This document shows positions 1-13,030 of a stretch of DNA of 13,030 bases, piece by piece (position 1 is the first letter of the stretch; every line of letters starts with the position of its first letter). The DNA is taken from positions 1-13,030 of the forward strand of contig NZ_RAWB01000277.1 in NCBI RefSeq assembly GCF_003612055.1. Direction: 5' to 3'. Made by a program: the position numbers and the translations under genes. Origin of the DNA: Corallococcus llansteffanensis (GTDB lineage: Bacteria > Myxococcota > Myxococcia > Myxococcales > Myxococcaceae). The notes under the pieces are model-generated. The model did no database searches. It saw only the letters and a program-made list of their open reading frames with translations, and was not told where the DNA came from.

Positions 1-1
1 G

Positions 2-751
2 CTGTGGCTCACCACGGGCGATGCGCTCCTGTGGCGGCAGACCGGCACGACATCGCCCTGGACGCCGTCCCTGTACCTGCTGGAGGACTTCGCCTCGCCC
101 CAGGTGCAGCTGCGAGCCATCAGCGTGGGCTTCTTTGGATTCTCACCCCTGGGTGGAGGATCCAGCGCCCTGGACTTCCGGGTGGAGTGGCGCACCGCCC
201 ACGAACCCCTGCCCGCGGGCACGCTGCGGCCCGTGAGCCGGGGCGCGACATGCGTGCCGTCCATCCCGGAGGGCTGTCCCTGGACGGACGGCCGGCTCGA
301 AACCGTGGCCCTGTCCAACCCCAAGACAGACCCACGCGTGTACGGCCTCACCGTCACGCTGCCCCAGCCCACGCGCCCGCGCCACGCGGTGGTGCGCGGC
401 CTGCGCCATGCGCACGGCTACGAGGGCAAGGAGTGGCTCGTCCTGGAGGGCAGCCTGGATGGCGAGCACTGGCAGCTCCTCAACCGGACCGTGCTGCGGG
501 ACATGGACTCACGCACCCGGGCCGTGAACGCCGTCCTGCACAACCCCTACGGCGACCTCGCCCCACAGGACTCGCCCTACGGGGATGCCCCCATCCTCCT
601 GGGAGACGAAGAGCCCGTCTTCATCGAGCTGCCCCTGTCCGACGCGGAGCCCGCGCGCTACGTCCGGCTCTCCGTGGAGCTGTTGGACTTCGAAGGCAGT
701 ACATCCCCCGGAGCGCTCATGAAGCTCGCGGAGTTCTCCGTCTTTGAATAG
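2..751 (+). CDS. 3' part (C-terminus) of a larger protein ending in a discoidin / F5-8 type C (galactose-binding-like) domain; 5' end lies outside the window
   Basis: Frame 2 is open from nt 2 (no stop before the first Met at 104) to TAG at 749-751. GC3-rich codons. The C-terminal motifs 'EWLVLEGSLDGEHWQLL' and 'ARYVRLSVELLDFEG' are typical of discoidin domains. The competing frame-1 ORF 4..747 is Arg/Pro/Gly-rich shadow. Confidence 0.6.
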   Translation: MWLTTGDALLWRQTGTTSPWTPSLYLLEDFASPQVQLRAISVGFFGFSPLGGGSSALDFRVEWRTAHEPLPAGTLRPVSRGATCVPSIPEGCPWTDGRLETVALSNPKTDPRVYGLTVTLPQPTRPRHAVVRGLRHAHGYEGKEWLVLEGSLDGEHWQLLNRTVLRDMDSRTRAVNAVLHNPYGDLAPQDSPYGDAPILLGDEEPVFIELPLSDAEPARYVRLSVELLDFEGSTSPGALMKLAEFSVFE

Positions 752-772
752 CGCCGGGCGTTGATGGGTGAC

Positions 773-791
773 GCTGGCAAGCGTTGCCAGC
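773..791 (+). terminator. Perfect 8-bp stem hairpin GCTGGCAA-gcg-TTGCCAGC, 22 nt downstream of the stop at 751; possible terminator or regulator site
   Basis: Read directly from the sequence. No U-tract follows. A near-identical palindrome GGCAAGCATTGCC recurs at 809-821. Confidence 0.3.
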
Positions 792-886
792 AGCTCCCGC
801 CCCCGGACGGCAAGCATTGCCGGGCGCTCCCTGTCAAAACCCCGTGGGCGGGGGGCTTCCGGGCCGGCACGTGGAGTGCACTGCGT

Positions 887-905
887 GTGAACGCAATCCG
901 TTCAC
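887..905 (+). promoter_or_regulatory. 7-bp inverted repeat GTGAACG-caatc-CGTTCAC immediately upstream of the RBS (AGGAG at 910-914) of the gene starting at 924; candidate operator
   Basis: Palindrome seen in the sequence. Position about 20-35 nt upstream of the start codon. Confidence 0.25.
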
Positions 906-923
906 CCCCAGGAGCGCTTCCCC

Positions 924-2729
924 ATGTCACAAAGACTCTCCCTCGGTGCCTTTGGCGCCCTGGCCTCGCTTTGCCTTGCCTCCAGCGCATGGGCCGGCGC
1001 GGTCGAAGACTTCAAGAAGGGCAAGGACGTCCAGCTCACCGCCGTCTCGGCGGTCATGGACGGCGAAATCTACTCCATCGCCGGCTTCCAGATTCCCAAG
1101 GCCGCCGACACGCTCAACATCACCCTCACGGGCGCGGACCTGGGGCTGAACTTCTCCCAGTCCGTCTTCCTCACGGGCGTGCAGAGCGGCAACTCCATCC
1201 TCTGGACGTTCAACCAGACGTTCAATCCCCCCATCGCCGTCGATGGGACGACCGTGGTCAACCACGTCTCCGGGTTGCTCATCGTCAACGCAACCCTGCT
1301 CGCGGGCACCCACCACCCGCTGTGCGGCTTCCAGCCCTGCCTTCGCGACGTGCTGCTCACGCACGCTCCCGGCTCCTGGATCCTCGTGGAGGGAGAGGGC
1401 GCGCTCGGCATCGATTTCTCGCGGCTCGTCATGGTCGACTACTTCCGCGCGCTGGGAGGAATCCCCCAGCCCGGCCTCTCCGCCTTCTACGTCCCGGGCA
1501 CGGCCAAGGTCTGCTCTTCGCCCGTCACGACCTACCTGCCGATGACCGCGTTCCTCACCGGGTTCGCGCCGTCAGGGGGCACGAAGGTCGACTTCGTGAG
1601 CGCCTACCCCAAGGGCCTCAAGGTTCCGCCCAACCTCACCGTCCCCGGCGGTCAATCTACCGCGTCGTTCAAGGCCGCGGTGGCGCCTGACTTCACCGGC
1701 CAGGTGAACGTGGTCGCGTCGTCCGCGGGCGCCATCTACTCCCGCCTGGTGCAGATCTTCCCCCAGGCGGACTGTGACAGCGGCGGCAACCGGAACGACC
1801 CGTTCGACGTGCGGGCCTACGTCCCGGACCTGCTCCTGGGATGCATCAACTGCTCGGAGCTCATCGACCTGGGCATCCGGGGCCAGGGCCTCCTCCGCGT
1901 GCAGGGCCTGGATGTGTACTTCAATGGCAGTCAGCTCCGCCGCCTCTCCAGCGTGTTCGACGTGGTCTCGGTGAGCGCCGTGGACATGACGGACAGCGGG
2001 CTCGTCACCGGCTCGATGGTCGTCCGCGCGGGAGAGGCTCCGGTGGCGTTCAGGGCCAGCCTGGAGGGCGGCCCCACCACCCCGATCGTACTGGGTGCCT
2101 TCACCCCCACCGCCATCACCGCGAGCGGCGTCGTGATTGGCAATCACACCTCACGCACCAGCAGCGTCGCCATGTATCACGATGGCAGGTCGCTGAAGGA
2201 GCTGCCCATCCCCGGCGCCACCCGCAGCCAGGCCCTCGCGGTGAGCGAGGCCGGACACATCGTGGGCACCTACGAGCGGGACGGTGACGTGCGGGCCTTC
2301 CTCTTCACGGAGGGCGTGTTCCGGACGCTTCCCCAGCTTTCGCGCGCCACCACGACGGTCCCCGTGGCGGTCAACAACCGGGGACAGGTGGTCGCCCACT
2401 CCGTGGACGCCACCGGTGCCGTGCTCGCGGTGGCCATCATCGAACCCAATGACACCTTCCACCTCCTCGGCGTGCCCTCCGGCTTCACCGGGCTCACCGC
2501 CACCTCCATCAATGCACGGGGTTGGGTCTCGGCGACCGCCACCTCCCACACCGGGACGAGCGGCTTCCTCTACACCCGCGAGGATGGATGGGTGGATCTC
2601 AACCGCCGGCTCTCTCCGGCCGGCAGCGTGGTGGTGACGGACGCCCTGCGCATCACGGATGCGGATCAGGTGCTGGTGCACGGGACCGCCAACGGCAACC
2701 GCGCGCTCTACCTGCTCACCCTTCCCTGA
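924..2729 (+). CDS. Secreted 601-aa protein with N-terminal signal peptide and C-terminal degenerate ~45-aa repeats resembling the HAF extracellular repeat family
   Basis: ATG at 924 with AGGAG 9 nt upstream. N-terminus 'MSQRLSLGAFGALASLCLASSAWAGA' is a signal peptide with an AWA-G cleavage site. Repeats of the form '…IVGTYERDGDVRAFLFTEGVFRTL…NNRGQVVAHS…' and '…ARGWVSAT…SGFLYTREDGWVDL'. GC3-rich codon usage. Confidence 0.8.
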   Translation: MSQRLSLGAFGALASLCLASSAWAGAVEDFKKGKDVQLTAVSAVMDGEIYSIAGFQIPKAADTLNITLTGADLGLNFSQSVFLTGVQSGNSILWTFNQTFNPPIAVDGTTVVNHVSGLLIVNATLLAGTHHPLCGFQPCLRDVLLTHAPGSWILVEGEGALGIDFSRLVMVDYFRALGGIPQPGLSAFYVPGTAKVCSSPVTTYLPMTAFLTGFAPSGGTKVDFVSAYPKGLKVPPNLTVPGGQSTASFKAAVAPDFTGQVNVVASSAGAIYSRLVQIFPQADCDSGGNRNDPFDVRAYVPDLLLGCINCSELIDLGIRGQGLLRVQGLDVYFNGSQLRRLSSVFDVVSVSAVDMTDSGLVTGSMVVRAGEAPVAFRASLEGGPTTPIVLGAFTPTAITASGVVIGNHTSRTSSVAMYHDGRSLKELPIPGATRSQALAVSEAGHIVGTYERDGDVRAFLFTEGVFRTLPQLSRATTTVPVAVNNRGQVVAHSVDATGAVLAVAIIEPNDTFHLLGVPSGFTGLTATSINARGWVSATATSHTGTSGFLYTREDGWVDLNRRLSPAGSVVVTDALRITDADQVLVHGTANGNRALYLLTLP

Positions 2730-2766
2730 CCCACCTCCCTGCCCACACCCTCAAAGGATTTCCATC

Positions 2767-3519
2767 ATGATGAAGCACAAGAACAAACTCCTGCTCATGG
2801 CGGTCGTGTTCACCCTGTTCCAGGGTTGTGCGAGCTGCCTGCAGGAACCCTGCGTCCCCGGCATCAAGTTCCCGGAGCCCGGGTCCTGTCCCCTCAAGGG
2901 ACATCCCCAGGGCTCGTCCGGAGGAAAGTGCAACAACTTCATCGGCAACTTCGGTTGCGATGATCCGGACCACACGTGTGTCTCCAACACCTGCATTCCT
3001 TGCGGCCAGCCCGGCTCGGTCTGCTGCGAGCATCAGGGGTGCGACGGCATGGCGACGTGCGTGAAGCCCAAGGAGGACCACACCTTTTCCGTCTGCTCCA
3101 ATGAGTGCGTCCAGGTGGGCGACAGCTGCTGCACGAACAACCAGTGCGGCTCCGGCATGGTGTGCAACGCCAACCTCAAGCAATGCGTGCCGGCGAACGA
3201 GCCCACGTGCGGAATGGGCCCCACCCTCTTCGCGCTCGGGGTGATCTCCGACAACACGAAGTGCGGCGACGTGATCTTCATCAAGGAAGCCAGCCTGCAG
3301 GCCGCGAAGCAGTGCGTCCAACCCCAGGTCCAGGCCGCCGGGACGCACTTCGCCCCGGACAACACGCCGCTGCAGGAGTTCACCTTCTGCAACTCCGGCT
3401 CGGGGATCGACCCTTCGGCGACCGTGACCGTGGCGGCGTTCTCCTCAACCGATGCGGCGACGTGCGCCCACAACCTGTGCACCAACTGCGCGAGCACGGC
3501 TCCCGGCCCCTGTCCGTAG
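2767..3519 (+). CDS. Cysteine-rich lipoprotein (~250 aa) with duplicated CC-x3-[GQ]-C-x(1-2)-G-x(2-3)-C modules
   Basis: ATG ATG at 2767 with AAGGA at 2753-2757. 'MMKHKNKLLLMAVVFTLFQGC' contains a lipobox LFQG-C. About 30 Cys residues. Repeated blocks 'GSVCCEHQGCDGMATC' and 'GDSCCTNNQCGSGMVC'. It lies 37 nt after the upstream gene, consistent with an operon. Confidence 0.75.
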   Translation: MMKHKNKLLLMAVVFTLFQGCASCLQEPCVPGIKFPEPGSCPLKGHPQGSSGGKCNNFIGNFGCDDPDHTCVSNTCIPCGQPGSVCCEHQGCDGMATCVKPKEDHTFSVCSNECVQVGDSCCTNNQCGSGMVCNANLKQCVPANEPTCGMGPTLFALGVISDNTKCGDVIFIKEASLQAAKQCVQPQVQAAGTHFAPDNTPLQEFTFCNSGSGIDPSATVTVAAFSSTDAATCAHNLCTNCASTAPGPCP

Positions 3520-3532
3520 CCGCGGGCCCATG

Positions 3533-3574
3533 AAAAAAGCCCGGTCGGCCCTCTGGGAAAGAGGGCCGCCGGGC
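3533..3574 (-). terminator. Intrinsic terminator for the minus-strand gene 3604..5247: 14-bp stem with a 1-nt bulge and a 7-nt loop, followed on the minus strand by a U6 tract; also lies 3' of the plus-strand gene
   Basis: aaaaaa-GCCCGGtCGGCCCTC-tgggaaa-GAGGGCCGCCGGGC read from the sequence. The A6 on the plus strand gives U6 after the stem on the minus-strand transcript. Confidence 0.7.
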
Positions 3575-3603
3575 GAGCTCACAAGCGTGGGAGGCGGGGA
3601 CGA

Positions 3604-5247
3604 CTACCCGTTGCGGCGCACCATCGCGACGTCGTAGCGGCGGTCCGTCACGTAGCCCTCGGCGGCCTTGCCGGGGCGGGTCATCGCGCCCGTCTTCTCA
3701 TCCACGTAGAAGCGGTTGTTGGGGTTGGTGTCCTTGCCCTTGCTCGCGTTGGTCGTCCCCGGGTCGTGGAACGTGTAGTAGGTGCGGCCCTTGTCGTCGA
3801 CGCCGCGGCCCGTGATGGTCACGAAGTGGTCCGTGAGCCCGTCCGCGTTGTACTTCGCGTCCTTGTGGCTGACGCCCACCACCACCGGCTTGCCGGCGTC
3901 CAGCTGCTGGTCGATGTACTTGCGACCCTCGGCGGCCTTCTTGGAGTTCACCGAGAGCTGGCCGGTGCTGTTCTCGCTGGTGCCCACCTGGATGCGGCTG
4001 TCCGGGCCCGTCACGTTCGCGCCCACCTTGCCGGCCATCGCCTTCGCGGCGTCGAAGCACGCGGTCTTGCTGGGGGTGAAGCCGTGGCCGCCCTCGAACT
4101 GGCTGTAGTACGGCACCTTCACGTGCACCGCGGGGCCCGACTTGGACGGCGCCACCGTCTGCGTGTCGTTGAGGTCCACTTCCGTGGTGGGCTTCTGCGA
4201 GTTGGCGCCCGTCGTGTTGCTCGTGGCCGGCTTCGTGTTGCTCGTGGCCGGCTTCGTGCCGCCCGTCGTGTTGCTCGTGGCCGGCTTCGTGTCTGCCGTC
4301 GTGGTACCCGGGGTCGTGGTGCCGCCCGCCTTCTCCTTCTTGAGCAGCGCGAGCGCGTCCTTCACCTCGGACTTGAAGCGGTTGGCCACGCCCTCCTGCA
4401 CGCTCTTGGAGTTGCTGGAGAAGTGCACCAGCGTGCCGCTGGAGTTGGTGCGGCCGCGCTCGGCGTAGATGTCCTTGATGAGCTGCTCGTCGCTCACCTT
4501 GGAGGGGTCGCGGCCGGCCAGCGCCTTCTTGAAGATGTCATCCGCCGCGCCCGGCCCGTGCTGCACGGACGTGGACCAGGCCACGTCGCGCAGCGCCGCG
4601 GACCGCGTGTCCAGGTCGATGCCCGTCGCCTTCTTGATGTTGGCGGCGCCCACGTCGTAGTGCGTGGCCTTGATGTAGTCGTGCTGCGCCTTGTCGAAGC
4701 CCTTGGGGTCCTTCGCCGCGAGCTGCTTCCACGCGTTGGAGAACGCCTCCGAGCCCGGCTTGCTGCCCGACAGCGCCGCGTGGAACTCCGGGTTGCTCTT
4801 CTTCAGCGAGTTCACGAACGACTGCGCGGACCCGTTCGCCGACGCGAACTGGTAGGAGCCGTACGACACGCCGCCGTGGTCGCCCTTGCCCGTGGACACC
4901 GTGCCGGGGCCACGCGCCTCGTACTTGCGGCTCAGCCCGCCCAGCTCGCCGCCACCCGCCGGAGCCGTCGTCTGCTTCGTGGTGTCCGTCGCCTTCGTCC
5001 CGCCCGTGTTGGACGTCGCCGGCTTGGTGGTGTTGGTGGCCGGCTTCGTGCTCGTGCCACGCGGGGGCTTCGTGTCGAAGCCGTCCGGGATGCGCAGCGA
5101 CTGGCCCGCGCGGATGCGGTCCGGGTCCTTGATGTTGTTGGCCTTGGCCAGCGCCGCCACCGTCGTGTCGTTGCGCTTCGCGATCGCGGAGAGGGTGTCG
5201 CCGGAACGGACGCGGAGGCTGGAGACGGTCATCGAAGGCACCTTCAT
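3604..5247 (-). CDS. Multidomain putative peptidoglycan hydrolase: N-terminal LysM domain, Thr-rich linkers, a central lysozyme-like (GH108-like?) domain, and a C-terminal papain-fold Cys peptidase (Peptidase_C39_2 / YvpB-like). No signal peptide
   Basis: LysM: 'SLRVRSGDTLSAIAKRNDTTVAALAKANNIKDPDRIRAGQSLRIP'. Central domain: 'GDHGGVSYGSYQF…FDKAQHDYIKATHYD', resembling the D-x-GG-x-T-x-YG muramidase motif. C-terminal 'VPYYSQ…KTACFDAA…DHFVTITG' carries a catalytic Cys/His pair. An alternative start at the in-frame ATG 5232 (Met6) has an AAGGTG SD-like sequence 7 nt upstream. The antisense ORF 3766..5295 is shadow. Confidence 0.85.
   Translation of the reverse strand: MKVPSMTVSSLRVRSGDTLSAIAKRNDTTVAALAKANNIKDPDRIRAGQSLRIPDGFDTKPPRGTSTKPATNTTKPATSNTGGTKATDTTKQTTAPAGGGELGGLSRKYEARGPGTVSTGKGDHGGVSYGSYQFASANGSAQSFVNSLKKSNPEFHAALSGSKPGSEAFSNAWKQLAAKDPKGFDKAQHDYIKATHYDVGAANIKKATGIDLDTRSAALRDVAWSTSVQHGPGAADDIFKKALAGRDPSKVSDEQLIKDIYAERGRTNSSGTLVHFSSNSKSVQEGVANRFKSEVKDALALLKKEKAGGTTTPGTTTADTKPATSNTTGGTKPATSNTKPATSNTTGANSQKPTTEVDLNDTQTVAPSKSGPAVHVKVPYYSQFEGGHGFTPSKTACFDAAKAMAGKVGANVTGPDSRIQVGTSENSTGQLSVNSKKAAEGRKYIDQQLDAGKPVVVGVSHKDAKYNADGLTDHFVTITGRGVDDKGRTYYTFHDPGTTNASKGKDTNPNNRFYVDEKTGAMTRPGKAAEGYVTDRRYDVAMVRRNG
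4213..4290 (-). repeat. In-frame tandem 21-nt repeat (three copies of CGTGTTGCTCGTGGCCGGCTT at 4213, 4234 and 4267) encoding KPATSNT linker repeats on the minus strand. A second Thr/Pro-rich linker region lies at about 4960-5060
   Basis: Perfect 21-mer copies read directly from the sequence. Translation of the minus strand gives TKPATSNTKPATSNT. Confidence 0.65.
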
Positions 5248-5424
5248 GTCGGGCCGCGAACAACGGGGGTCGCGGACGTGATTGGATTGCCGTGATTATC
5301 GACAGGCAATGAAGGCAGTTTCTCATTCTCAGTCACAATCGTGTCAAACCAGTGATTCCAGTAACTTCAGTTTCGGCGGATCAATCCGCTGAGACTAGAG
5401 AACCCGCCCAGGAGGCCCAATCGG
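5248..5424. promoter_or_regulatory. Divergent intergenic promoter region, locally AT-richer, between the LysM-peptidase gene (minus) and the secreted protein gene (plus). Contains GTGATT x3, the inverted repeat ATTGCC-n13-GGCAAT and the palindrome CGGATCAATCCG (5377-5388)
   Basis: Drop in GC compared with the flanks. Divergent gene starts on both sides. AGGAGG RBS at 5410-5415 for the plus-strand gene. Confidence 0.4.
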
Positions 5425-6456
5425 ATGTCCAGGATCCAACCGGATTTCAAAATTTTGCCATTGCTGTTCGCCCTTGGCCTCACGGGCGCGGTCCCGAATG
5501 CCTCGGCTCAGGGGCCTGGAGGACTCACGGGCGTCTATTCCAAGGATGGCGGGGCGCTGGCCATCGTCGAGGGGAGCAACGAGACGCTGATCCACTACTC
5601 GGCCGGCTTTCCGCAGGGCGACAGCGTGGGCACGTGCGACTGCGCGCTGGTCGTTCAACGCAAGACGTCAACGCGCTGGACGCTGAACGTGGCCGGGGAG
5701 AAGGAGCCCTGGACGCTGCGCGTCGAACCCAAGCAGCTCGTCCTGGAGACGAAGGCGCCCACCTGCTGCGGCGCGGGCTACCCGGGCAAGGACACCTTCA
5801 CGCGGGGCACGCCCCAGCCGCTGACCGTCTGCAAGGTGAAGGCATCCAAGGCGGGCTTCTTCGCGTCGGATGAAGCCAATACGCCGCGCAAGACGTTCGT
5901 GGTGTCTGGCGACGCGGTGGAGGCCTACCTGGACCCCGTGGAGCCGGACCTCATCCCCGCGCGCTTCCAGGGGCCCCAGAAGGCCACGGCGGGGCTGCTC
6001 AAGCGCGCGGACCTGGACTGCGAGGCGGCCAAGGCCCCCACGGCGAGCAAGGCGCCCGTGGCGGCCGACAAGCTCCAGCCCTTCGCGGGCACATGGGTGG
6101 AATTGACGCGCAAGGGCAAGGGCTTCGTCATCCTCAAGCCCTGCTCCGCCAAGAACCGCAGCTTCACCGTCAAGCCCGCGACGGGCGAGGTGGAGGTGCA
6201 GCTGGGACAGGAGGCGACGACACTGAAGGCGACGTCGCTGGAGCCCGGCAAGGGCGCCGGGGCCTGGGTGCTGGGGCTCACGTCCACGGAGGGCAAGCCG
6301 GAGGCGCTCCAGTGGAAGACGGCCGACGCGGCGAAGGGCACCGTGTCGGTGACGAGCCCGGACCTCTTCTCCCAGAGCCATGACTACGTGCGTCAGGAGA
6401 AGCAGTCCGCGTTCCCGGTGAAGCAGGAGACCGGCTGCGACGAGTACGAGCAGTAG
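5425..6456 (+). CDS. Secreted hypothetical protein (343 aa) with signal peptide
   Basis: ATG at 5425 with AGGAGG 9 nt upstream. N-terminus 'MSRIQPDFKILPLLFALGLTGAVPNASAQG' is a signal peptide. GC3-rich coding frame. The antisense ORFs 5668..6381 and 5925..6341 are shadows. Confidence 0.75.
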   Translation: MSRIQPDFKILPLLFALGLTGAVPNASAQGPGGLTGVYSKDGGALAIVEGSNETLIHYSAGFPQGDSVGTCDCALVVQRKTSTRWTLNVAGEKEPWTLRVEPKQLVLETKAPTCCGAGYPGKDTFTRGTPQPLTVCKVKASKAGFFASDEANTPRKTFVVSGDAVEAYLDPVEPDLIPARFQGPQKATAGLLKRADLDCEAAKAPTASKAPVAADKLQPFAGTWVELTRKGKGFVILKPCSAKNRSFTVKPATGEVEVQLGQEATTLKATSLEPGKGAGAWVLGLTSTEGKPEALQWKTADAAKGTVSVTSPDLFSQSHDYVRQEKQSAFPVKQETGCDEYEQ

Positions 6457-6460
6457 CGCG

Positions 6461-7372
6461 TCACGGGTCCGGGCGCTCCGCCCCCGGGTTCAGCCGGGGC
6501 GCGCCTCCCGGGCCCAGCAGGCCCTGCATGGCGTCGAAGAGGTTGAGGTTGGAGCCGCTGGGGAGGAAGACGACCTTGTCCAGGCCTCCCACGACGGCGG
6601 CCTGGGCCTGGGCCGCGACGGCCTTCACGAAGTTCTCCCCGCCCCCCAGCGCCTCCACGCGCTGGCGGAACTGCGAGGCCTCCACCTCGGCGAGCCGGGA
6701 CTGGCGCTCCACCTCCAGGTCGTTCAGGCGCTGCTGCCGCTCCAGGGCCATCTGGGTCGTCAGGCGCTCGCGCTCCAGCTCCGCCTCGGAGCGGATGCGG
6801 GAGGCGCGGGCGTCGGACTCGGCGCGGGCCAGGGCCTCCTCGCTCTCCACGCGGGCCTTCTCCAGCGACACGACGGTGACGGACTCGTCGGGCACGTAGC
6901 GACCGGGCCCGCGCACCAGCCACTCGTCGCCGGCCTCGCGGCGGCGGGGCGCGTCCGGGGCGCGTGCGTCCGTGAAGGCGGTGAGCGCGCGCAGGCGCAG
7001 CGCTTCCGACACGCCCAGCACGTACTCCGGGACGATGTCGCCCTCCAGCTCCTCGCCCGGATACAGCGGGAACACCTTGGGGCCGACGCGGACCTCGCGG
7101 TCCCCCACCGCCAGCCGGGCCTGGCCGAAGTCGTCCAGCACCACCTGGCCGTCCACGCGCACCACGGGGTTGCGCACCACGCACCAGTTGCCGGCGCCCA
7201 CCTCCACCATCCGCTCCTTGGCGACGAGCGTGAGGTGCGCCTCCAGGGTCAACACCCGGGGCCCCACCTCCATCAGCACCACCCCCCGGTTGGCGTCCTC
7301 GATGTATGCGTATTCGCGATTCTTCAGGGAGATGCGCTGGATGGCTTCGGTGCTGGGGAGGGCGGACGGCAC
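6461..7372 (-). CDS. Major vault protein (MVP)-like protein, 303 aa: MVP repeats 1 to ~3 fused through a short coiled coil to an MVP cap-helix/cap-ring-like C-terminus; repeats 4-9 and the shoulder domain are absent
   Basis: GTG start at 7372 (first in-frame start; no SD). The N-terminus aligns with human MVP repeats 1-3 and the C-terminus with the MVP cap-helix end (details in findings). The other-frame ORF 6393..7379 is Gly/Pro/Arg-rich shadow. GC about 75 %. Confidence 0.8.
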   Translation of the reverse strand: MPSALPSTEAIQRISLKNREYAYIEDANRGVVLMEVGPRVLTLEAHLTLVAKERMVEVGAGNWCVVRNPVVRVDGQVVLDDFGQARLAVGDREVRVGPKVFPLYPGEELEGDIVPEYVLGVSEALRLRALTAFTDARAPDAPRRREAGDEWLVRGPGRYVPDESVTVVSLEKARVESEEALARAESDARASRIRSEAELERERLTTQMALERQQRLNDLEVERQSRLAEVEASQFRQRVEALGGGENFVKAVAAQAQAAVVGGLDKVVFLPSGSNLNLFDAMQGLLGPGGAPRLNPGAERPDP

Positions 7373-7467
7373 GGGGCACCTGCTCGGGGCGGAGGGTTCA
7401 CCCGCGAGTCATTGCCAGCCGCGTGCCGCGCCCTGCCCGTCCTGAAACGATCCTGCGATGTTCCGAC

Positions 7468-7519
7468 CTGGAACAGCCGCCCGCTCCATTCCGGAGCGGG
7501 CGGCGGTCCAGACTGGCGC
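7468..7519. repeat. 52-nt imperfect hairpin repeat, copy A (CTGGAACAGCCGCCCGCTCCATTCCGGAGCGGGCGGCGGTCCAGACTGGCGC), immediately 3' of the minus-strand gene ending at 7525; terminator-like (11-bp stem, 5-nt loop), no U-tract
   Basis: 50/52 identical to copy B at 8824-8875. Core CCGCCCGCTCC/GGAGCGGGCGG stem plus outer CTGGA/TCCAG arms, read from the sequence. Confidence 0.6.
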
Positions 7520-7524
7520 GCCTT

Positions 7525-8700
7525 TCAGTCCTTGTGGATCCACACGAGCATGCGCGTCGCGTCATAGAGCACGAACCTGGCGTCCCGAAGGAAGGAATTG
7601 CCAACCTGCGCCGCCGGGGTGGTCCAGGTAGCAATCCCCCCACACTTGAGGCTTGCCGGCGTCGGTGTCTTGATGAACAGGTGGGCATCTCCATAGGAGC
7701 GCACGGGCTGATCGTCGGTGCCCATGAACTCCAGCCGCGCGCCTTCGGGAAGGAGAAACTCCTGGACCGTGTCGTTGGCCCCTCCGCACGCACTCAGCTG
7801 GCTGGGCGGCGTCCCGACCGGAACGGTTTTGACTCCCGCCTTGGTCAACATCTCAAGCAACGCCTTGTTGCCATAGAGGCTGTGCCTGACGATTGAATCA
7901 TCAAGCCCTGAGTCCAGCTGGCCTATGAAACGCGCCCCGCCCATCCGCAATGGAACGGTAGGCACGTTCGGCACAAGCTCACTGGCACCCGCGCCTGAAC
8001 GGAGCCGGGTCATGTTGAACAACCCCGAATCGTTGATCGCGAAGTAGCCGCGGGTTGTGAGCGGCCGCAACCCGGCACTCTTGAGCTGGTCGTCATCGCA
8101 CAAGGATCCAGAGCGATTCCGGAAGACAAGCGAGCGCTCATAGTCGAGCGCGAAGGTATTGAGCACCAGGAAGTCAGCCCCCACGATACCCGCCTGTCGC
8201 CCGACTGTCGGGTCTACTTTGTTGCCCGAGTGGTCAGCTTGTGCAAGGCACACGTTTCCCCATCCACCAAAGAAATCAAAGTTCCCAAAGCGGCAAAACG
8301 TGCCCGCGACTCCTGACTGGCAGAGGGTTTGATCTCGAGCGCAGTTATCAACAATCACCTCCGGCTCGTTCTGTCCGAACGCTTGGTGCGCCCGGTCAAT
8401 CGTGCTGTACGTCGAACCGAAGTCCAGCAGGAACCTACCCGTGAGCGGAGCGCCCGAGGGTGCCGACAACTTGACCTCAACAAATGGCCATTGGCCAGAC
8501 ACCCAGAGAGGTCTGCGCTCCCCCAGACACGCATCCAAGCTGGAGAACGGCCGACTGCTGGCGACTTCTGGCTGAGCAGGGGCGGCTTGTTCAGGTTTGT
8601 GGGCACAGGCAGGCAACAGCCAAAGCGCCAGCACTGCCGCGCCCAGGCGCCAAAGCAGCCCAGCGTCGAGACTGGCATACCCCTGTTTTTCGGCAGACAT
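7525..8700 (-). CDS. Lipoprotein (391 aa). Two D-x-G motifs ('LLDFGSTYS' and 'IGQLDSGLDDS') about 170 residues apart suggest a pepsin-like (A1) aspartic peptidase fold; function tentative
   Basis: ATG at 8700. 'LALWLLPAC' lipobox. Clearly lower GC (about 55-63 % per 60-nt line) than the neighbouring genes (about 70-78 %), with a less GC-biased third position. The spacing of the two Asp motifs resembles pepsin D32/D215. Confidence 0.7.
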   Translation of the reverse strand: MSAEKQGYASLDAGLLWRLGAAVLALWLLPACAHKPEQAAPAQPEVASSRPFSSLDACLGERRPLWVSGQWPFVEVKLSAPSGAPLTGRFLLDFGSTYSTIDRAHQAFGQNEPEVIVDNCARDQTLCQSGVAGTFCRFGNFDFFGGWGNVCLAQADHSGNKVDPTVGRQAGIVGADFLVLNTFALDYERSLVFRNRSGSLCDDDQLKSAGLRPLTTRGYFAINDSGLFNMTRLRSGAGASELVPNVPTVPLRMGGARFIGQLDSGLDDSIVRHSLYGNKALLEMLTKAGVKTVPVGTPPSQLSACGGANDTVQEFLLPEGARLEFMGTDDQPVRSYGDAHLFIKTPTPASLKCGGIATWTTPAAQVGNSFLRDARFVLYDATRMLVWIHKD

Positions 8701-8823
8701 GTACAGTCATCCCCCAGATGGTGATTGCGGCCAACACCCTAACACGAACACCGCGGCGGGGACGCTTGGTGCCCTCCCCGGTGAAGTGCAGTTCCTGGAA
8801 GCGGGCCCAGGAAGCCAGGGATG

Positions 8824-8875
8824 CTGGAACAGCCGCCCGCTCCATTCCGGCACGGGCGGCGGTCCAGACTGGCGC
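8824..8875. repeat. 52-nt hairpin repeat, copy B (…CATTCCGGCACGGGCGG…), immediately 3' of the GDSL lipase gene ending at 8886 and about 120 nt 5' of the low-GC lipoprotein gene
   Basis: Direct repeat of copy A in the same orientation. The two mismatches sit in the loop-proximal stem, leaving a 7-bp core stem plus outer arms. Confidence 0.6.
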
Positions 8876-8885
8876 ACCGGGGTGA

Positions 8886-9779
8886 CTACTGAGCGCTCCA
8901 CGCCTCCACGGTCCACTCGTCGGCGGAGAGGCCGGCGCTGAAGCCGAGGGCGTCGGAGACGAGGTCATGGCCGTAGTCCGCGAAGATGCGGTGGCTGTAG
9001 CTCGTGGGGTGGATCTCATCCCAGAACAGGTACGTGTCCGGGTTGACAGCCTTGCCCTTGCTGGTGCCGGTGACGTTCGTCAGGCCGTACGCGGACGGCG
9101 ACGCGATGATGGCGTTGAACTGGTTGTAGGCGTTCATCCCGATGAAGGTGACGGACGGGAAGTCCTGGCGCAGCTTCGTCAGCGATTGCGCCCACAGGGT
9201 GTTGAACTGGCTGGTGGGAGGAGCGAGCACGGTGGTGCCCAGGCCGCCCGGGACGGACAGCGCCGCCGGCGTCTTGTTCAAGGGCGGCATGTTCACCCAC
9301 AGGATGCGCTTCGCGCCCGCCGCGACGAGCTTGCGGATCTGCCCATTGATGTTGGAGACGGCCGTCGTCGCCGCGGCCTTGATGCCAGCCGAGTCGAACG
9401 GGTTCGCCTGGGCCTTGTAGTTGATGTCATTGCCCCCGCCCCAGAGGACATACAGCGCCGTGGAGGACGCCGTCGGGTGGGCCGCCAGGTAGCTGTTCAC
9501 CTGGCTCGTCATCCCGCTGGTGACGGCGCCGCCCCGGGCATAGTTCGTGCCGCCGCTGTCGGACGCCGTCAGGGGCAGGCCCAGCTGCGTAGCGAGCTGC
9601 TTCACCCAGGTGCCGGCAATCTGGCTGGAGGGATTCGTCGTCGGACCGCTGGTGGCGATGCCGTTGTTGCCGTTGTCACTCAGGCTGTCGCCAAACACGA
9701 CGATGCTGCTCTGCGCGCCAGCGTGGAACGGGAGGAGGACGGCCAAGATGGCCGCGAGCAACAGGAAGGGATGCTTCAT
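8886..9779 (-). CDS. Secreted GDSL/SGNH-family lipase/esterase (copy 1)
   Basis: ATG at 9779 (GAGGAG RBS upstream). An in-frame GTG at 9794 is the track start, but the ATG matches the paralog alignment. 'MKHPFLLLAAILAVLLPFHAGAQS' is a signal peptide. SGNH blocks: 'VVFGDSLSDNGN', 'YARGGA', 'WGGGNDI', 'DEIHPT'. The start ATG overlaps the upstream gene's stop TGA as ATGA. Confidence 0.85.
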   Translation of the reverse strand: MKHPFLLLAAILAVLLPFHAGAQSSIVVFGDSLSDNGNNGIATSGPTTNPSSQIAGTWVKQLATQLGLPLTASDSGGTNYARGGAVTSGMTSQVNSYLAAHPTASSTALYVLWGGGNDINYKAQANPFDSAGIKAAATTAVSNINGQIRKLVAAGAKRILWVNMPPLNKTPAALSVPGGLGTTVLAPPTSQFNTLWAQSLTKLRQDFPSVTFIGMNAYNQFNAIIASPSAYGLTNVTGTSKGKAVNPDTYLFWDEIHPTSYSHRIFADYGHDLVSDALGFSAGLSADEWTVEAWSAQ

Positions 9780-10672
9780 GGCTGCGCGCTCCACTCCTCA
9801 ACGGTCCACTCGTCGGCGGTGAAGCCGGCGCTGAAACCGAAGGCATCGGAGACGAGGTCGTACGCGTAGTTCGCGAAGATGCGGTGGCTGTAGCTCGTCG
9901 GGTGGATTTCATCCCAGAACAGGTACTTGTCCGGGTTGACCGCCTTGCCCTTGCAGGTGCCGGTGACGTTCGTCAGCCCATACGCGGACGGGGCCGCGAT
10001 GATGGCGTTGAACTTGTTGTAGGCGTTCATCCCGATGAACGTGACGGACGGGAACTCGCCGCGCAGCTTCGTCAGGGACTGGGACCAGAGCGTGTTGAAC
10101 TGGGAGCTGGGCGGCGAAAGCACGCTGCTGCCCAGGCCGAACGGGATGGACAGCGCCGCGGGCGTCTTGTGGAGCGGCGGCATGTTCACCCACAGGACGC
10201 GCTTCGCGCCCGCGGCGACGAGCTTGCGGATCTGCCCTTCGATGTTGGAGACGGCCTTGGTCGCCACGGCCTTGATGCCAGCCGAATCGAACGGGTTGTC
10301 CATCGCCTTGTGATGGATGTCGTTGCCGCCGCCCCAGAGGACATACAGCGCCGTGGACGACGCCGTCGGGTGGGCGGTGAGGTAGGCGTTGACCTGGTTC
10401 GTCATGTCGGCCGTGACCGAGCCGCCCTGCGCGTAGTTCGTGCCTCCCTCGTCAGAGGCCACGAGCGGCAGGTCCAGCTGGTCCGCGAGCTGTTTCACCC
10501 AGGGACCGGAGATCTGGCTGGAGGGATTCGTCGTCGGACCGCTCGTCGCGGTGCTGTACTTGCCGTTGTCACTCAGGCTGTCGCCAAACGCGACGATACT
10601 GCTCTGCGCGCCAGCGTGGAACGGGAGGAGGACCGCCAGGGCGGCCGCGAACGACAGGAAGGGATGTTTCAA
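9776..10672 (-). CDS. Secreted GDSL/SGNH-family lipase/esterase (copy 2, tandem paralog). Start uncertain: TTG at 10672 (aligned with the copy 1 start) or GTG at 10720
   Basis: Protein about 80 % identical to copy 1, with the same SGNH blocks ('VAFGDSLSDNGK', 'WGGGNDI', 'DEIHPT'). 'LKHPFLSFAAALAVLLPFHAGAQS' aligns with the copy 1 signal peptide. GGAG lies 8 nt upstream of the TTG. No in-frame ATG near the N-terminus. Confidence 0.8.
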   Translation of the reverse strand: MKHPFLSFAAALAVLLPFHAGAQSSIVAFGDSLSDNGKYSTATSGPTTNPSSQISGPWVKQLADQLDLPLVASDEGGTNYAQGGSVTADMTNQVNAYLTAHPTASSTALYVLWGGGNDIHHKAMDNPFDSAGIKAVATKAVSNIEGQIRKLVAAGAKRVLWVNMPPLHKTPAALSIPFGLGSSVLSPPSSQFNTLWSQSLTKLRGEFPSVTFIGMNAYNKFNAIIAAPSAYGLTNVTGTCKGKAVNPDKYLFWDEIHPTSYSHRIFANYAYDLVSDAFGFSAGFTADEWTVEEWSAQP

Positions 10673-10784
10673 GGAGGGCTCCGAGAGGGGGGAACACAGG
10701 CGTCTGCCGCACTGTGTCACCGATCTCGGAGCTTTTCCAGGTTTCTCTACGCTTCCATGTTTTATTCCGGATGTTTCAGCGGGC
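10673..10784 (-). promoter_or_regulatory. Putative promoter/leader of the tandem GDSL operon (AT-richer 'ttccatgttttattccggatgtttcagc') and 3' region of the upstream minus-strand gene
   Basis: Local AT enrichment between the stop at 10785 and the GDSL start. Inference only. Confidence 0.25.
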
Positions 10785-11474
10785 TCAGCCCCGCGCGGCG
10801 CGGGCGTCGCGGCCCTTGGCGCGGGCGGCCTTGGAGAGCAGGTCGGAGCCCTTCTCCTCGCCCTTCATCCACGCCTTCATCGCGGGGACGACCTGCTTGC
10901 TCCACGCGCGGCCGCCGCGCACGGCGAGGAAGGCCGTCACCAGCGCGTCCACCAGGGCGGAGAGCTGTTCGGTCAGCTCCAGGCGCTCGGTGAGCTGATC
11001 ATCCTCCTCCTCGGTCATCAGGGCGGGCAGCTTGGCGGCGCGGATGTCCAGGAACTCCGCATCCAGGGTGAGCTCGAACTCGCGCTCGCCGTGGGAGATG
11101 CGCAGCCGCGCCTGGGACACAAGCAGCCCCCGGTCCAGCGAGTGCCGCACGTTCTCCGAGTACGGAGCCAGCGTGCCGCGCGCGCTCAACTCCGTGACGT
11201 CACCGGCCACGCCGCGCAGCACCACCTTGCCCAGGTAGAGCGCCGTGACGGACGCGCCGTCGTGCTCCACCAGCGGGTCGCCGGACTCCGTGCGCCACAG
11301 CAGCCACGTCAGGAACTCGCGCCCCAGGTAGGCCCGGCCGCGCAGGAGCTGTTCGCGCGCCTTGCCCTGTTCGACCTCGGCCTCGTCCTTGACCTCTTCG
11401 GTCGAGCCACCATCCACGCCCACGTCGCCCCGGGCGAACGCCGCCTCGATCCGCGCCTGCTCACCCTTCGCCAT
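10785..11474 (-). CDS. Protein resembling the C-terminal half of recombination-associated protein RdgC (229 aa), with an acidic N-terminal extension
   Basis: ATG at 11474 with GGAGGACAGCC upstream, a strong SD. 'LGREFLTWLLWRTESGDPL…GKVVLRG…LRISHGEREFELTLDAEFLDIRAAKLP…DDQLTERLELTEQLSALVDALVTAFL' parallels E. coli RdgC 'LTLTEWVRSGSAPQGF…GGVIRAKK…[26 protein letters not shown]…[30 protein letters not shown]' (E. coli sequence recalled from memory). Overlaps the upstream ORF by 14 nt in a different frame. Confidence 0.6.
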   Translation of the reverse strand: MAKGEQARIEAAFARGDVGVDGGSTEEVKDEAEVEQGKAREQLLRGRAYLGREFLTWLLWRTESGDPLVEHDGASVTALYLGKVVLRGVAGDVTELSARGTLAPYSENVRHSLDRGLLVSQARLRISHGEREFELTLDAEFLDIRAAKLPALMTEEEDDQLTERLELTEQLSALVDALVTAFLAVRGGRAWSKQVVPAMKAWMKGEEKGSDLLSKAARAKGRDARAARG

Positions 11475-12111
11475 GGCTGTCCTCCACCGAAGCCGTCGCC
11501 GGCAGGTCCATTCCGATGAGCTCCGCCGTGGGGCCCAGGGCCTTGTCGTCGATGCCCGCGCGCTGCGCCATCGAGGCGGGCGTGATGCCAATCACCTTCA
11601 CCGCCAGGGCGCCTTCCAGGGCCACGGAGATCTCATCCACCGTCTTGCGGGACGCGGCCCAGATCTGCACCTGCTGCGTCTTCAGGTTCCACGTCACGTC
11701 CAGCACGCTGGTGCGCGGCACGGCCCGCTGCCGGAGCAGCTGCTTCAACTCCGCGCGCTGCTTGTTCTTCTCCGCGCGCGCGGGCGGGCGGCTGTTCTCC
11801 TTGGCGAAGGCGGAGGACCACTTGTCCAGCTCCGCCTTCATCATGGAGGCGGGGACCTTCAGGGTGTCGATGCGGAAGGCGAAGAGGGCGTACTCGCCAT
11901 AGAAGAGGTTGCTGGTGGAGAAGTCGGAGGCCTCCGCGTTCTCCAGCTCCACGAAACCGGCCGCGCGCTCATCTTCGGAGCGGCGGTCGATGGGCTCGAA
12001 CGCATGGGACTTGAGTCCCTTGGTCAGCCAGCGCTTCACGTCGGACGGCGCATCCTTGGCCGGCTCGGTCCGGAAGCGCGAAAAGGTCACGGCACCACGT
12101 AGGACAGGCAT
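11461..12111 (-). CDS. rdgC: RdgC-family (recombination-associated) protein, N-terminal two-thirds (216 aa)
   Basis: ATG at 12111 (no SD). 'MPVLRGAVTFSRFR…LKSHAFEPI…FAFRIDTLKVPASMMKAELDKW…RAEKNKQRAELKQLLRQRAVPRTSVLDVTWNLKTQQVQIWAASRKTVDEISVALEGALAVKVIGITP' aligns with E. coli RdgC residues about 1-180 ('MLWFKNLMVYRL…[23 protein letters not shown]…[69 protein letters not shown]'). The upstream in-frame extension to 12783 is Arg/Pro/Gly-rich non-coding shadow. Confidence 0.6.
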   Translation of the reverse strand: MPVLRGAVTFSRFRTEPAKDAPSDVKRWLTKGLKSHAFEPIDRRSEDERAAGFVELENAEASDFSTSNLFYGEYALFAFRIDTLKVPASMMKAELDKWSSAFAKENSRPPARAEKNKQRAELKQLLRQRAVPRTSVLDVTWNLKTQQVQIWAASRKTVDEISVALEGALAVKVIGITPASMAQRAGIDDKALGPTAELIGMDLPATASVEDSHGEG

Positions 12112-12324
12112 GGGGCGCGGGAGGATGGGGGGCCGGTGCCGTGGCGTCAAGGCACTCGGGGTGGCTGGACGCACTCGCGTGGGAATAGCCGGCGCACCCG
12201 GCCGTTGCGCGCCCGTCGTCCCTGCCCGGTCGCCCTCCGGGCCGTCTTCCCGTGCACGCCCGCCCGTCCCCGCCGGCCGGAAACCATGACACTCCCAGGC
12301 ACGCGACATACGGTGGCCGCCGCC
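12112..12324. promoter_or_regulatory. Divergent intergenic region between the rdgC-like gene (minus) and the PBP4-like gene (plus)
   Basis: Bounded by two divergent start codons. Very GC-rich, with no recognisable SD for either gene. Confidence 0.3.
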
Positions 12325-13030
12325 ATGCGCCGAGCCCTCCTCCCCGTCAGCGTCTCCACCGCCACCGTCCTGCTGTCCGCCTGCGCCCACGTGCCTTCCG
12401 GGCCGGAGGCCCCCCCGGGGAGCACCCTGCCCGGCGTCACCCGCACCCTGCTGGAGACGCTGGAGGCGGACGGCGCGCTCGCCGGCGCGTATGTGGTGGA
12501 CGCGCGCACCGGCGAGCCCCTCTTCAAGCACCGGGAGAACGTGCGGCTCCTGCCCGCGTCCACGATGAAGGTGGTGTCCACCTCCGCGGCGCTGTCCGCG
12601 TTGGGGGCGGACTTCCGCTTCGTGACGCCGGTGTCGCTGGAGGGTTCGCAGGTGGGCGGCCTGTTCCTGGGCGACATCGTGGCGCAGGCCTCCGGCGACC
12701 CGTCCCTGGGCTCGTGGCGCTTCCCGGAGACGGCGCTCGCCTGCGACCGCATCGCGGAGGCGTTCCAGGCGCGCGGCATCCACCAGTGGCGCGGCAACGT
12801 GCGCATCGCCGGCACCGACGGCGTGGACGGCCTCATGGGGCCGGGCTGGGCCTGGGATGACGCCGCCTATGCCTACAGCGCGGCGCCCACCCCGTTCGTC
12901 TTCCGCGAGAACGTGGTGGACCTGGCCCTGGCCCGCGCCCCCGGCTCCACCTGCGCGGACGCGCCCGCCGTCCAGTGGACCCCCACCTTCGCCACGCTGT
13001 CCGCCGTGGTGCGCGTGGACGTCAACGCGG
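12325..13030 (+). CDS. dacB: D-alanyl-D-alanine carboxypeptidase/endopeptidase, PBP4 (peptidase S13) family lipoprotein; 3' end lies outside the window
   Basis: 'MRRALLPVSVSTATVLLSAC' is a lipoprotein signal peptide with an LSAC lipobox. 'LLPASTMKVVSTSAALSALG' contains the SxxK active-site motif in the PBP4-typical context (E. coli DacB 'LPASTQK'). The frame is open to the window end. An alternative in-frame ATG lies at 12286. ORFs 12252..12860(+) and 12147..12836(-) are shadows. Confidence 0.7.
   Translation, partial: MRRALLPVSVSTATVLLSACAHVPSGPEAPPGSTLPGVTRTLLETLEADGALAGAYVVDARTGEPLFKHRENVRLLPASTMKVVSTSAALSALGADFRFVTPVSLEGSQVGGLFLGDIVAQASGDPSLGSWRFPETALACDRIAEAFQARGIHQWRGNVRIAGTDGVDGLMGPGWAWDDAAYAYSAAPTPFVFRENVVDLALARAPGSTCADAPAVQWTPTFATLSAVVRVDVNA

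Follow-up and report, generated by a model that had tools for sequence, protein, structure and literature searches.

Two overlapping open reading frames (ORFs) of Corallococcus llansteffanensis, here called ORF1 and ORF2, very probably constitute a genuine two-gene form of an RdgC-like DNA-binding protein, one that would have arisen by ancient gene fission or may never have been fused. They lie on the minus strand of contig NZ_RAWB01000277.1, in the stretch of 13,030 nucleotides (nt) analyzed here (positions 1 to 13,030; hereafter the window). RdgC is a non-enzymatic, ring-shaped protein that binds double-stranded DNA (dsDNA) non-specifically (PMC1885664). ORF1 carries its centre and tip domains, ORF2 is the rest of the protein, that is, the base domain, and the cut falls at the boundary between centre and base, at RdgC residue ~167/168. 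A preliminary description of this DNA had reported two overlapping ORFs in different frames at 10785-12111 and had set a genuine split gene beside a programmed frameshift and an error or pseudogenisation as possible explanations. Both ORFs are present, with 14 nt in common, and it is the genuine two-gene split that gains support, from an arrangement conserved in 79 of 79 loci, from a start and a Shine–Dalgarno (SD) motif proper to ORF2, and from ratios of nonsynonymous to synonymous substitution rates (dN/dS) below 1.

Conservation of the gene pair and its junction

The relatives were scanned with one genome per species, and the 79 loci found to encode an ORF2 relative cover Corallococcus, Myxococcus, Archangium, Hyalangium, Anaeromyxobacter, and deep Myxococcota metagenome-assembled genomes (MAGs). 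An ORF1 relative lies directly upstream on the same strand in every one of them (79/79), and the overlap has the identical 14-nt geometry, ATG-N8-TGA, in 63. Other junctions consist of overlaps of 11 nt (three loci), 8 nt (three), or 1 nt (two), and of gaps of 1-6 nt in the deepest branches, giving a range of +14 to -6 nt; a stop and a start, the latter ATG or GTG for ORF2, are always found at the junction, deeper lineages included. The 14-nt overlap with an SD motif within the end of ORF1 is typical of most Myxococcaceae, Archangiaceae, and Anaeromyxobacter genomes, and an SD-like motif stands at positions -16 to -4 of the ORF2 start in 78 of the 79 loci. Recurrence of the pair and its junction is far beyond chance, and the comparison of orthologous loci that the preliminary description had proposed as a check, with its two-ORF arrangement found throughout, points to a real split gene. 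The 14-nt geometry itself is frozen because the conserved end of ORF1 (..EVxHGEA, then the stop) and the conserved start of ORF2 (MGKREQAR..) share nucleotides with the SD motif and with the start and stop codons.

Two loci with an irregular appearance are not genuine exceptions to the pair arrangement. In one MAG contig (L028; CAVYSY010000002.1, ~1857..2500), the best ORF1 match covers only amino acids (aa) 1-109, after which the automated reading continues in another frame, the sole such case among the 79; a frameshift in its ORF1 is possible, perhaps through an indel in the assembly. In the other (L078), an odd automated call reflects alignment past the stop, and the junction read by eye is TGAcccaccATG. 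Beyond the core Myxococcota, all three of the stand-alone ORF2-type genes that were checked have an ORF1-type gene directly upstream (hmmsearch E 1e-26 to 1e-33), at spacings of 9 nt (L097/L098, from the "Myxococcota PWKZ01" bin), 103 nt (L099/L100), and 183 nt (L080). One cluster of the ORF2 family includes a member from a Byssovorax sp. MAG.

Purifying selection acts on both genes, with pairwise dN/dS of 0.1-0.6 for ORF1 as for ORF2, and the GC content at third codon positions is ~0.9 in the ORF2 frame, as for genuine genes in this window of 68% GC. The two products also appear as separate proteins in database searches, with ORF1-type proteins of ~212-229 aa and ORF2-type proteins of ~224-232 aa spread over hundreds of database clusters. 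Homologs within Corallococcus are 97-98% identical (C. sicarius, C. praedator), and further separate products occur in Myxococcus, Pyxidicoccus, Archangium, Hyalangium, Stigmatella, and Cystobacter.

In the window, ORF2 is read in the +1 frame relative to ORF1, and the SD-like motif ahead of it lies within the ORF1 coding sequence. The preliminary description had noted a strong GGAGG here at a distance of 7 nt from the ATG; the motif stands, but the spacing reads as 6 nt. The features of a translationally coupled overlapping pair are found together at this junction: a start at or near the upstream stop, an internal SD motif, and conservation of both in relatives. Read in this way, translation of ORF1 and ORF2 is probably coupled, and the 14-nt overlap would be the site of that coupling.

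Homology of the two products to RdgC

The assignment of ORF1 to the N-terminal part of RdgC, already made in the preliminary description, holds. Its product matches the Pfam RdgC family (PF04381) with an E-value of 5.4e-9 and a score of 36.2 bits (cut-off 25), and its aa 29-169 align to profile positions 22-156 of 298. Profile-profile comparison (hhalign) of an ORF1 alignment (A2) pairs aa 8-170 with residues 7-159 of canonical RdgC (Prob 95%, E 2.5e-8); the canonical profile used in these comparisons comprises 11 sequences, E. coli RdgC and ten phage RdgCs. ORF1 also matches PHROG 724 ("exonuclease recombination-associated") and is named 'recombination-associated protein RdgC' by NCBI, while its score for NCBIfam PRK00321, 31.9 against a cut-off of 227, falls far short. 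Two other relationships were considered and rejected: a weak PADLOC match of ORF1 to type IV Cas11 (E 9e-4), in a helical region, was taken as a coiled-helix artefact, and hhalign gives a Prob of 0.1% for ORF1 and ORF2 as mutual paralogs. Beyond the matched region, the C-terminal extension of ORF1 contains the invariant residues P178, A182, G186, L192, P194, T195, L198, G200, and E210 (alignment A2) and is possibly the segment on which ORF2 docks. The end of the protein, ..EVxHGEA, is a disordered tail, with a predicted local distance difference test score (pLDDT) <50 for aa 200-216.

The relationship of ORF2 to RdgC is visible at a different depth of comparison. Sequence searches of Pfam, NCBIfam, PHROG, PADLOC, and PDB returned no match for ORF2, the myxobacterial profile (A1) included; PDB searches with profiles A1 and A4, and a tblastn search of ORF2 against phage genomes, gave nothing useful; and hhalign with the narrow myxobacterial alignment A1 was not significant (Prob 4.5%). 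Weak matches of ORF2 to Med15, PsaM, interferon, L31, and a cyclase were attributed to chance. Significant hhalign matches for the ORF2 part came only from the diverse-family alignment A4 and the fused-protein alignment A3. With the 53 sequences of A4, aa 77-182 align to RdgC 188-297 (Prob 94%, E 1.3e-7), and two structure comparisons likewise show a likeness of ORF2 to the C-terminal part of RdgC. The preliminary description's statement that ORF2 resembles the RdgC C-terminal region is therefore upheld by profile-profile and structure comparison and not by plain sequence searches; its proposed check of both products against RdgC profiles gave a partial match for ORF1 and none for ORF2 in Pfam. 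It is because profile-profile comparison, structure comparison, and the single-chain relatives described below agree that ORF2 is identified as the RdgC base domain.

Ahead of its matched core, ORF2 carries an N-terminal tail (aa 1-45) that corresponds to the acidic inter-domain linker of single-chain relatives (P0244 and P0306 were compared). This is the acidic extension of about 45 aa in the preliminary description; the extension is confirmed, but its acidity is only mild (11 acidic and 7 basic residues). Stand-alone homologs of ~175 aa occur without this tail and begin just ahead of the FLGREFLTWL motif. The FLGREFLTWLLW helix shows the strongest conservation of any motif in the subfamily, split and fused forms alike, and hhalign with the fused profile A3 sets it opposite RdgC ~175-183, a weak placement. 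An exhaustive profile search that started from the ORF2 alignment puts the ORF2 family at no fewer than 1064 clusters (50% identity), and its stand-alone proteins are called "hypothetical protein" wherever a source name was seen.

Position of the cut

In Pseudomonas aeruginosa RdgC, the centre domain comprises residues 1-73 and 121-167, the tip spans 74-120, and the base extends over 168-306; tip and centre domains make up interface A, and the base-domain beta-sheets make up interface B (PMC1885664). From these domain limits and the alignments, it follows that ORF1 holds centre and tip, and with them interface A, and that ORF2 holds the base, and with it interface B. The order centre, tip, base is preserved across the two gene products. 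A single polypeptide of ~300 aa with all three domains is not found here, as centre and base are separated by a stop as well as a start with an SD motif (79/79 loci). The homologous parts are separated by the ORF1 extension (aa 171-216), the ORF2 tail (aa 1-45), and the FLGREFLTWLLW helix.

The hole of P. aeruginosa RdgC is lined by basic residues R4, K70, R81, R122, K146, R198, R208, and R252, and F120, R211, Q212, and K227 are interface residues (PMC1885664). In the hhalign alignment, which is remote (~15% identity), ORF1 R80, K92, R129, and R133 correspond to RdgC R69, K/R81, R118, and R122, and ORF2 R87 and R99 to K/R198 and K210. A basic residue is also retained at the K145 position, and ORF2 R145 and K148 align to K251 and K254, which flank the DNA-binding R252, itself aligned to A146. 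Such partial retention of mutagenesis-defined DNA-binding residues, as read from a remote alignment, fits the ring model proposed below.

Single-chain relatives

Among 152 representatives of the ORF2 family, the best 150 of the 1064 cluster representatives and two others, 23 unite both parts in one chain, the ORF1-like ahead of the ORF2-like, ~21 of them at full length (346-437 aa). The remaining 129 are stand-alone proteins, mostly of 150-225 aa. The Pfam RdgC match of the fused proteins is confined to their N-half, yet their profile is collinear with RdgC 7-297 (hhalign Prob 99.2%, E 9.5e-20). The same profile matches 2owl with E 4.8e-15 and gives a weak second collinear hidden Markov model (HMM) match to 2owy residues 185-266, and one fused protein, P0352, covers positions 9-274 of 312 in PHROG 724. 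That the fusions are real is indicated by P0306, which recurs identically on 8 contigs from several samples. Since these single-chain relatives are collinear with full-length RdgC, the split pair can be read as a gene cut at the centre/base boundary.

On a rough neighbor-joining (NJ) tree of the base-domain part, built without support values, fused forms are scattered among split forms, and one fused group (P0244, P0246, P0391, P0392) adjoins the Myxococcaceae/Anaeromyxobacter clade. P0391 and P0392 lie on phage-like or mobile-looking contigs, with DUF3799, a P22-like gene, AAA, HNH, SNF2 helicase, and N6/N4 methylase as neighbors. These occurrences suggest exchange between phages and Myxococcota chromosomes. 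The single-chain proteins nearest to the myxobacterial pair (~55% identity) are found at L095 5001..6161 and L096 385..1569, on phage-like or mobile-element-like contigs with these neighbors. A separate case concerns Escherichia phage vB_EcoM-673R5 (ON470615.2), where a P1-type RdgC homolog at 2570..3459 is named 'RdgC1' and 'RdgC2' and is recovered as two tblastn pieces; this is probably a gene frameshifted in the record, and it is unrelated to the myxobacterial split.

Proposed assembly

A possible mode of action for a split RdgC can be proposed by analogy. The overlap would couple translation of the two genes, so that both chains would be made together and in roughly equal amounts. ORF1 and ORF2 chains would then join non-covalently at the former centre-base junction, perhaps with the help of ORF1's conserved extension and the FLGREFLTWLLW helix of ORF2; two ORF1 chains would pair via their tip domains (interface A), and two ORF2 chains via their base-domain beta-sheets (interface B). 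The result would be a 2+2, four-chain, RdgC-like ring encircling dsDNA. As in E. coli RdgC, such a ring could act as a non-specific DNA-binding factor, either RecA-modulating or nucleoid-associated. RdgC is characterized by inhibition of RecA and by genetic interaction with priA and recFOR.

Several points weigh against this reading. The binding of chain to chain, and with it ring formation, would be a step beyond structure predictions that cover monomers, and the predicted ORF1 monomer is itself of low confidence (pLDDT 63.8). DNA binding and a link to RecA would be extrapolated from distant proteobacterial homologs, at ~15% identity, and several RdgC residues are replaced in the pair (K70 by I81, F120 by V131, K146 by T157, R208 by S97, and K227 by L117). 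Further, neither a sigma-70-type promoter nor an intrinsic terminator was detected near the pair in a scan not tuned to myxobacteria.

A more speculative and rather doubtful variant is a four-piece clamp assembled on demand, in which an ORF2 base dimer would recruit two ORF1 chains around DNA, the ORF2 tail and FLGREFLTWL helix would serve in docking or auto-inhibition, and the subfamily might take part in phage-host DNA conflict and not in housekeeping RecA control. A role in such conflict may be entertained because single-chain relatives lie on phage-like contigs beside helicase, nuclease, and methylase genes. If this clamp existed, it would answer how a closed RdgC ring gets onto circular DNA.

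Alternative explanations

It is improbable, though not without precedent, that ORF1 and ORF2 have diverged functionally and act separately, with ORF2, for example, binding DNA as a base-domain homodimer. RdgC base domains dimerise alone through a merged beta-sheet (PMC1885664), related folds occur in other arrangements such as the RexA dimer and the IML3-CHL4 heterodimer (PMC11077077), and 100-180 nt lie between the genes in some lineages, with no tight coupling. However, the two genes are strictly adjacent in all 79 loci, as well as in L080 and L097-L100, and the fused forms are scattered on the NJ tree, unsupported by values as it is; strict adjacency together with scattered fused forms is what would be expected for obligate partners.

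Programmed +1 frameshifting in the overlap, an option raised in the preliminary description, would resemble that of prfB (GGG_TGA) and would yield a fused RdgC-like protein, alone or beside the separate chains. We regard it as very unlikely. ORF2 does lie in the +1 frame, the final ORF1 codon in the window is GGG followed by TGA, with the SD-like GGAGG upstream, and the existence of fused relatives implies that a fusion product could function in principle. Most relatives, however, have GCG_TGA, at which the P-site tRNA is unable to re-pair in +1, and the SD motif lies ~14 nt upstream of the codon at which the shift would occur, a placement that suits initiation at the ORF2 ATG. Stimulation of prfB-type frameshifting requires an SD motif ~3 nt away, and the features of a prfB-type +1 site are not found here. 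The frame in deeper lineages also varies (0, +1, +2), so that no single shift mechanism is kept, whereas the start and the SD motif are.

Less probable still is that ORF2 has no kinship with RdgC and is a small protein in its own right, placed downstream by chance: the empty sequence searches (Pfam, NCBIfam, PHROG, PADLOC, PDB) and the insignificant A1 comparison speak for this, but the A4 match to RdgC 188-297, the structure comparisons, and the collinear fused relatives contradict it. Finally, one may suppose that a single rdgC-like gene was interrupted by an indel, from sequencing or assembly, or by recent pseudogenisation. A 1-nt indel would leave neighboring ORFs in two frames with a brief overlap, but this explanation is effectively ruled out by the 79-locus comparison, in which independent assemblies of many species and genera have the same junction (63/79 in identical geometry), ORF2 starts with an ATG or GTG of its own, preceded by an SD motif, in 78/79 loci, deeper lineages with 1-6-nt gaps or other overlaps always have the stop and the start, and dN/dS is <1 for both genes, while removal of 1 nt gives no canonical RdgC because ~70 extra linker and extension residues lie between the homologous parts.

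Gene features and neighborhood

Table 1. Features of the split rdgC pair, with positions in the window
Feature	Position	Strand	Basis or remarks
ORF1, RdgC-N gene, 216 aa	11461..12111	-	ATG at 12111, TGA 11463..11461; starts MPVLRGAVTFSRF, ends SHGEG before the stop
ORF1 aa 8-170, matched to RdgC centre (1-73, 121-167) and tip (74-120)	11602..12090	-	hhalign; domain limits from PMC1885664
ORF1 aa 171-216, conserved C-terminal extension	11464..11601	-	Alignment A2; also in fused relatives
GGAGG, Shine-Dalgarno-like, for ORF2, within ORF1 coding sequence	11481..11485	-	6 nt ahead of ATG (-11..-7)
14-nt ORF1/ORF2 overlap ATGGCGAAGGGTGA, ORF2 start through ORF1 stop	11461..11474	-	From sequence
ORF2, RdgC-C gene, 229 aa (linker-like tail and base domain)	10785..11474	-	ATG 11474..11472, TGA ending 10785; starts MAKGEQAR
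ORF2 aa 1-45, mildly acidic, partly disordered N-terminal tail	11340..11474	-	pLDDT <50 for aa 13-27
ORF2 aa 49-60 YLGREFLTWLLW, subfamily hallmark helix	11295..11330	-	Alignments A1, A3, A4
ORF2 aa 77-182, core matched to RdgC base domain 188-297	10929..11246	-	hhalign A4

The pair is flanked by two GDSL lipase genes downstream and a divergent S13 peptidase gene upstream, a setting common only to close relatives. Since the flanking genes are not conserved beyond these, the pair appears to be a self-contained unit. The tandem GDSL lipase/acylhydrolase genes (8886..9794 and 9776..10720, minus strand) directly follow ORF2 and overlap by 19 nt as listed; a GDSL homolog is found within 2.5-kb flanks in 7 of the 79 loci, in the closest Corallococcus relatives only. 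The upstream gene (12103..13029, plus strand) encodes the N-terminal part of an S13 D-Ala-D-Ala carboxypeptidase, is divergent from ORF1, and continues past the end of the window; it stands beside the pair in 21 of the 79 loci.

Elsewhere in the window, 6461..7372 on the minus strand encodes a 303-aa bacterial protein that contains repeat domains of the Major Vault Protein (PF17794, E 1.7e-23; PF01505, E 3.7e-16). Also on this strand, 3604..5247 encodes a 547-aa protein in which an N-terminal LysM domain is combined with a C-terminal peptidoglycan-degrading domain like that of VgrG3 of the type VI secretion system (PF21277, E 2.8e-53).

Comparison with known systems

No paper describing a split or a myxobacterial RdgC turned up in the body of literature searched. 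The pair is no new kind of system, and it does not overturn existing knowledge of RdgC. With canonical RdgC, the closest known system (E. coli, P. aeruginosa; PF04381; 2OWL, 2OWY), it shares the fold in both halves, the domain order, and, as read from a remote alignment, several of the basic residues that line the hole, and by analogy it probably forms a DNA-binding ring as well. It differs in that canonical RdgC is one chain of ~303 aa that forms a ring-shaped homodimer with a hole of ~30 A, whereas the myxobacterial form consists of two chains (216 and 229 aa) from overlapping genes. It also has ~140 extra residues (the ORF1 extension, the acidic ORF2 tail, and a basic C-terminal tail), shows only ~15% identity, and has some of the interface and DNA-binding residues replaced.

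These comparisons bear on annotation, evolution, and mechanism. The ORF2 family, which has neither a Pfam nor an NCBIfam family, is identified as the RdgC base domain, and "RdgC" as annotated in Myxococcota is half of the protein only. In evolutionary terms, a split at a domain boundary has been locked by a 14-nt overlap unchanged across families of a phylum. The natural cut at the centre/base hinge, moreover, offers a system for testing which RdgC interfaces open for DNA loading, and it also allows one to ask if the ring can function only when the chain is covalently continuous.

A further comparison is with the single-chain relatives (P0244, P0246, P0391, P0392, P0306, P0352, and others), metagenomic proteins of 350-440 aa and up to ~55-60% identical to the myxobacterial pair. 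They share the FLGREFLTWL helix and the ..L.PT.EL.. extension, but join both parts in one polypeptide via an acidic linker, and several are on phage-like contigs. The 'RdgC histone' operon protein of Bacillus and Halobacteria (PMC11390915) is a further divergent RdgC fold outside the Proteobacteria, with ~18% identity to RdgC and extra small domains; it is, however, a single chain, and its gene follows one for a histone fold and precedes one for a membrane protein, neighbors that the myxobacterial locus lacks. Finally, lambda RexA and IML3-CHL4 combine domains like the RdgC centre and base with non-specific DNA binding, and in IML3-CHL4 the fold works as an assembly of two different chains (PMC11077077).

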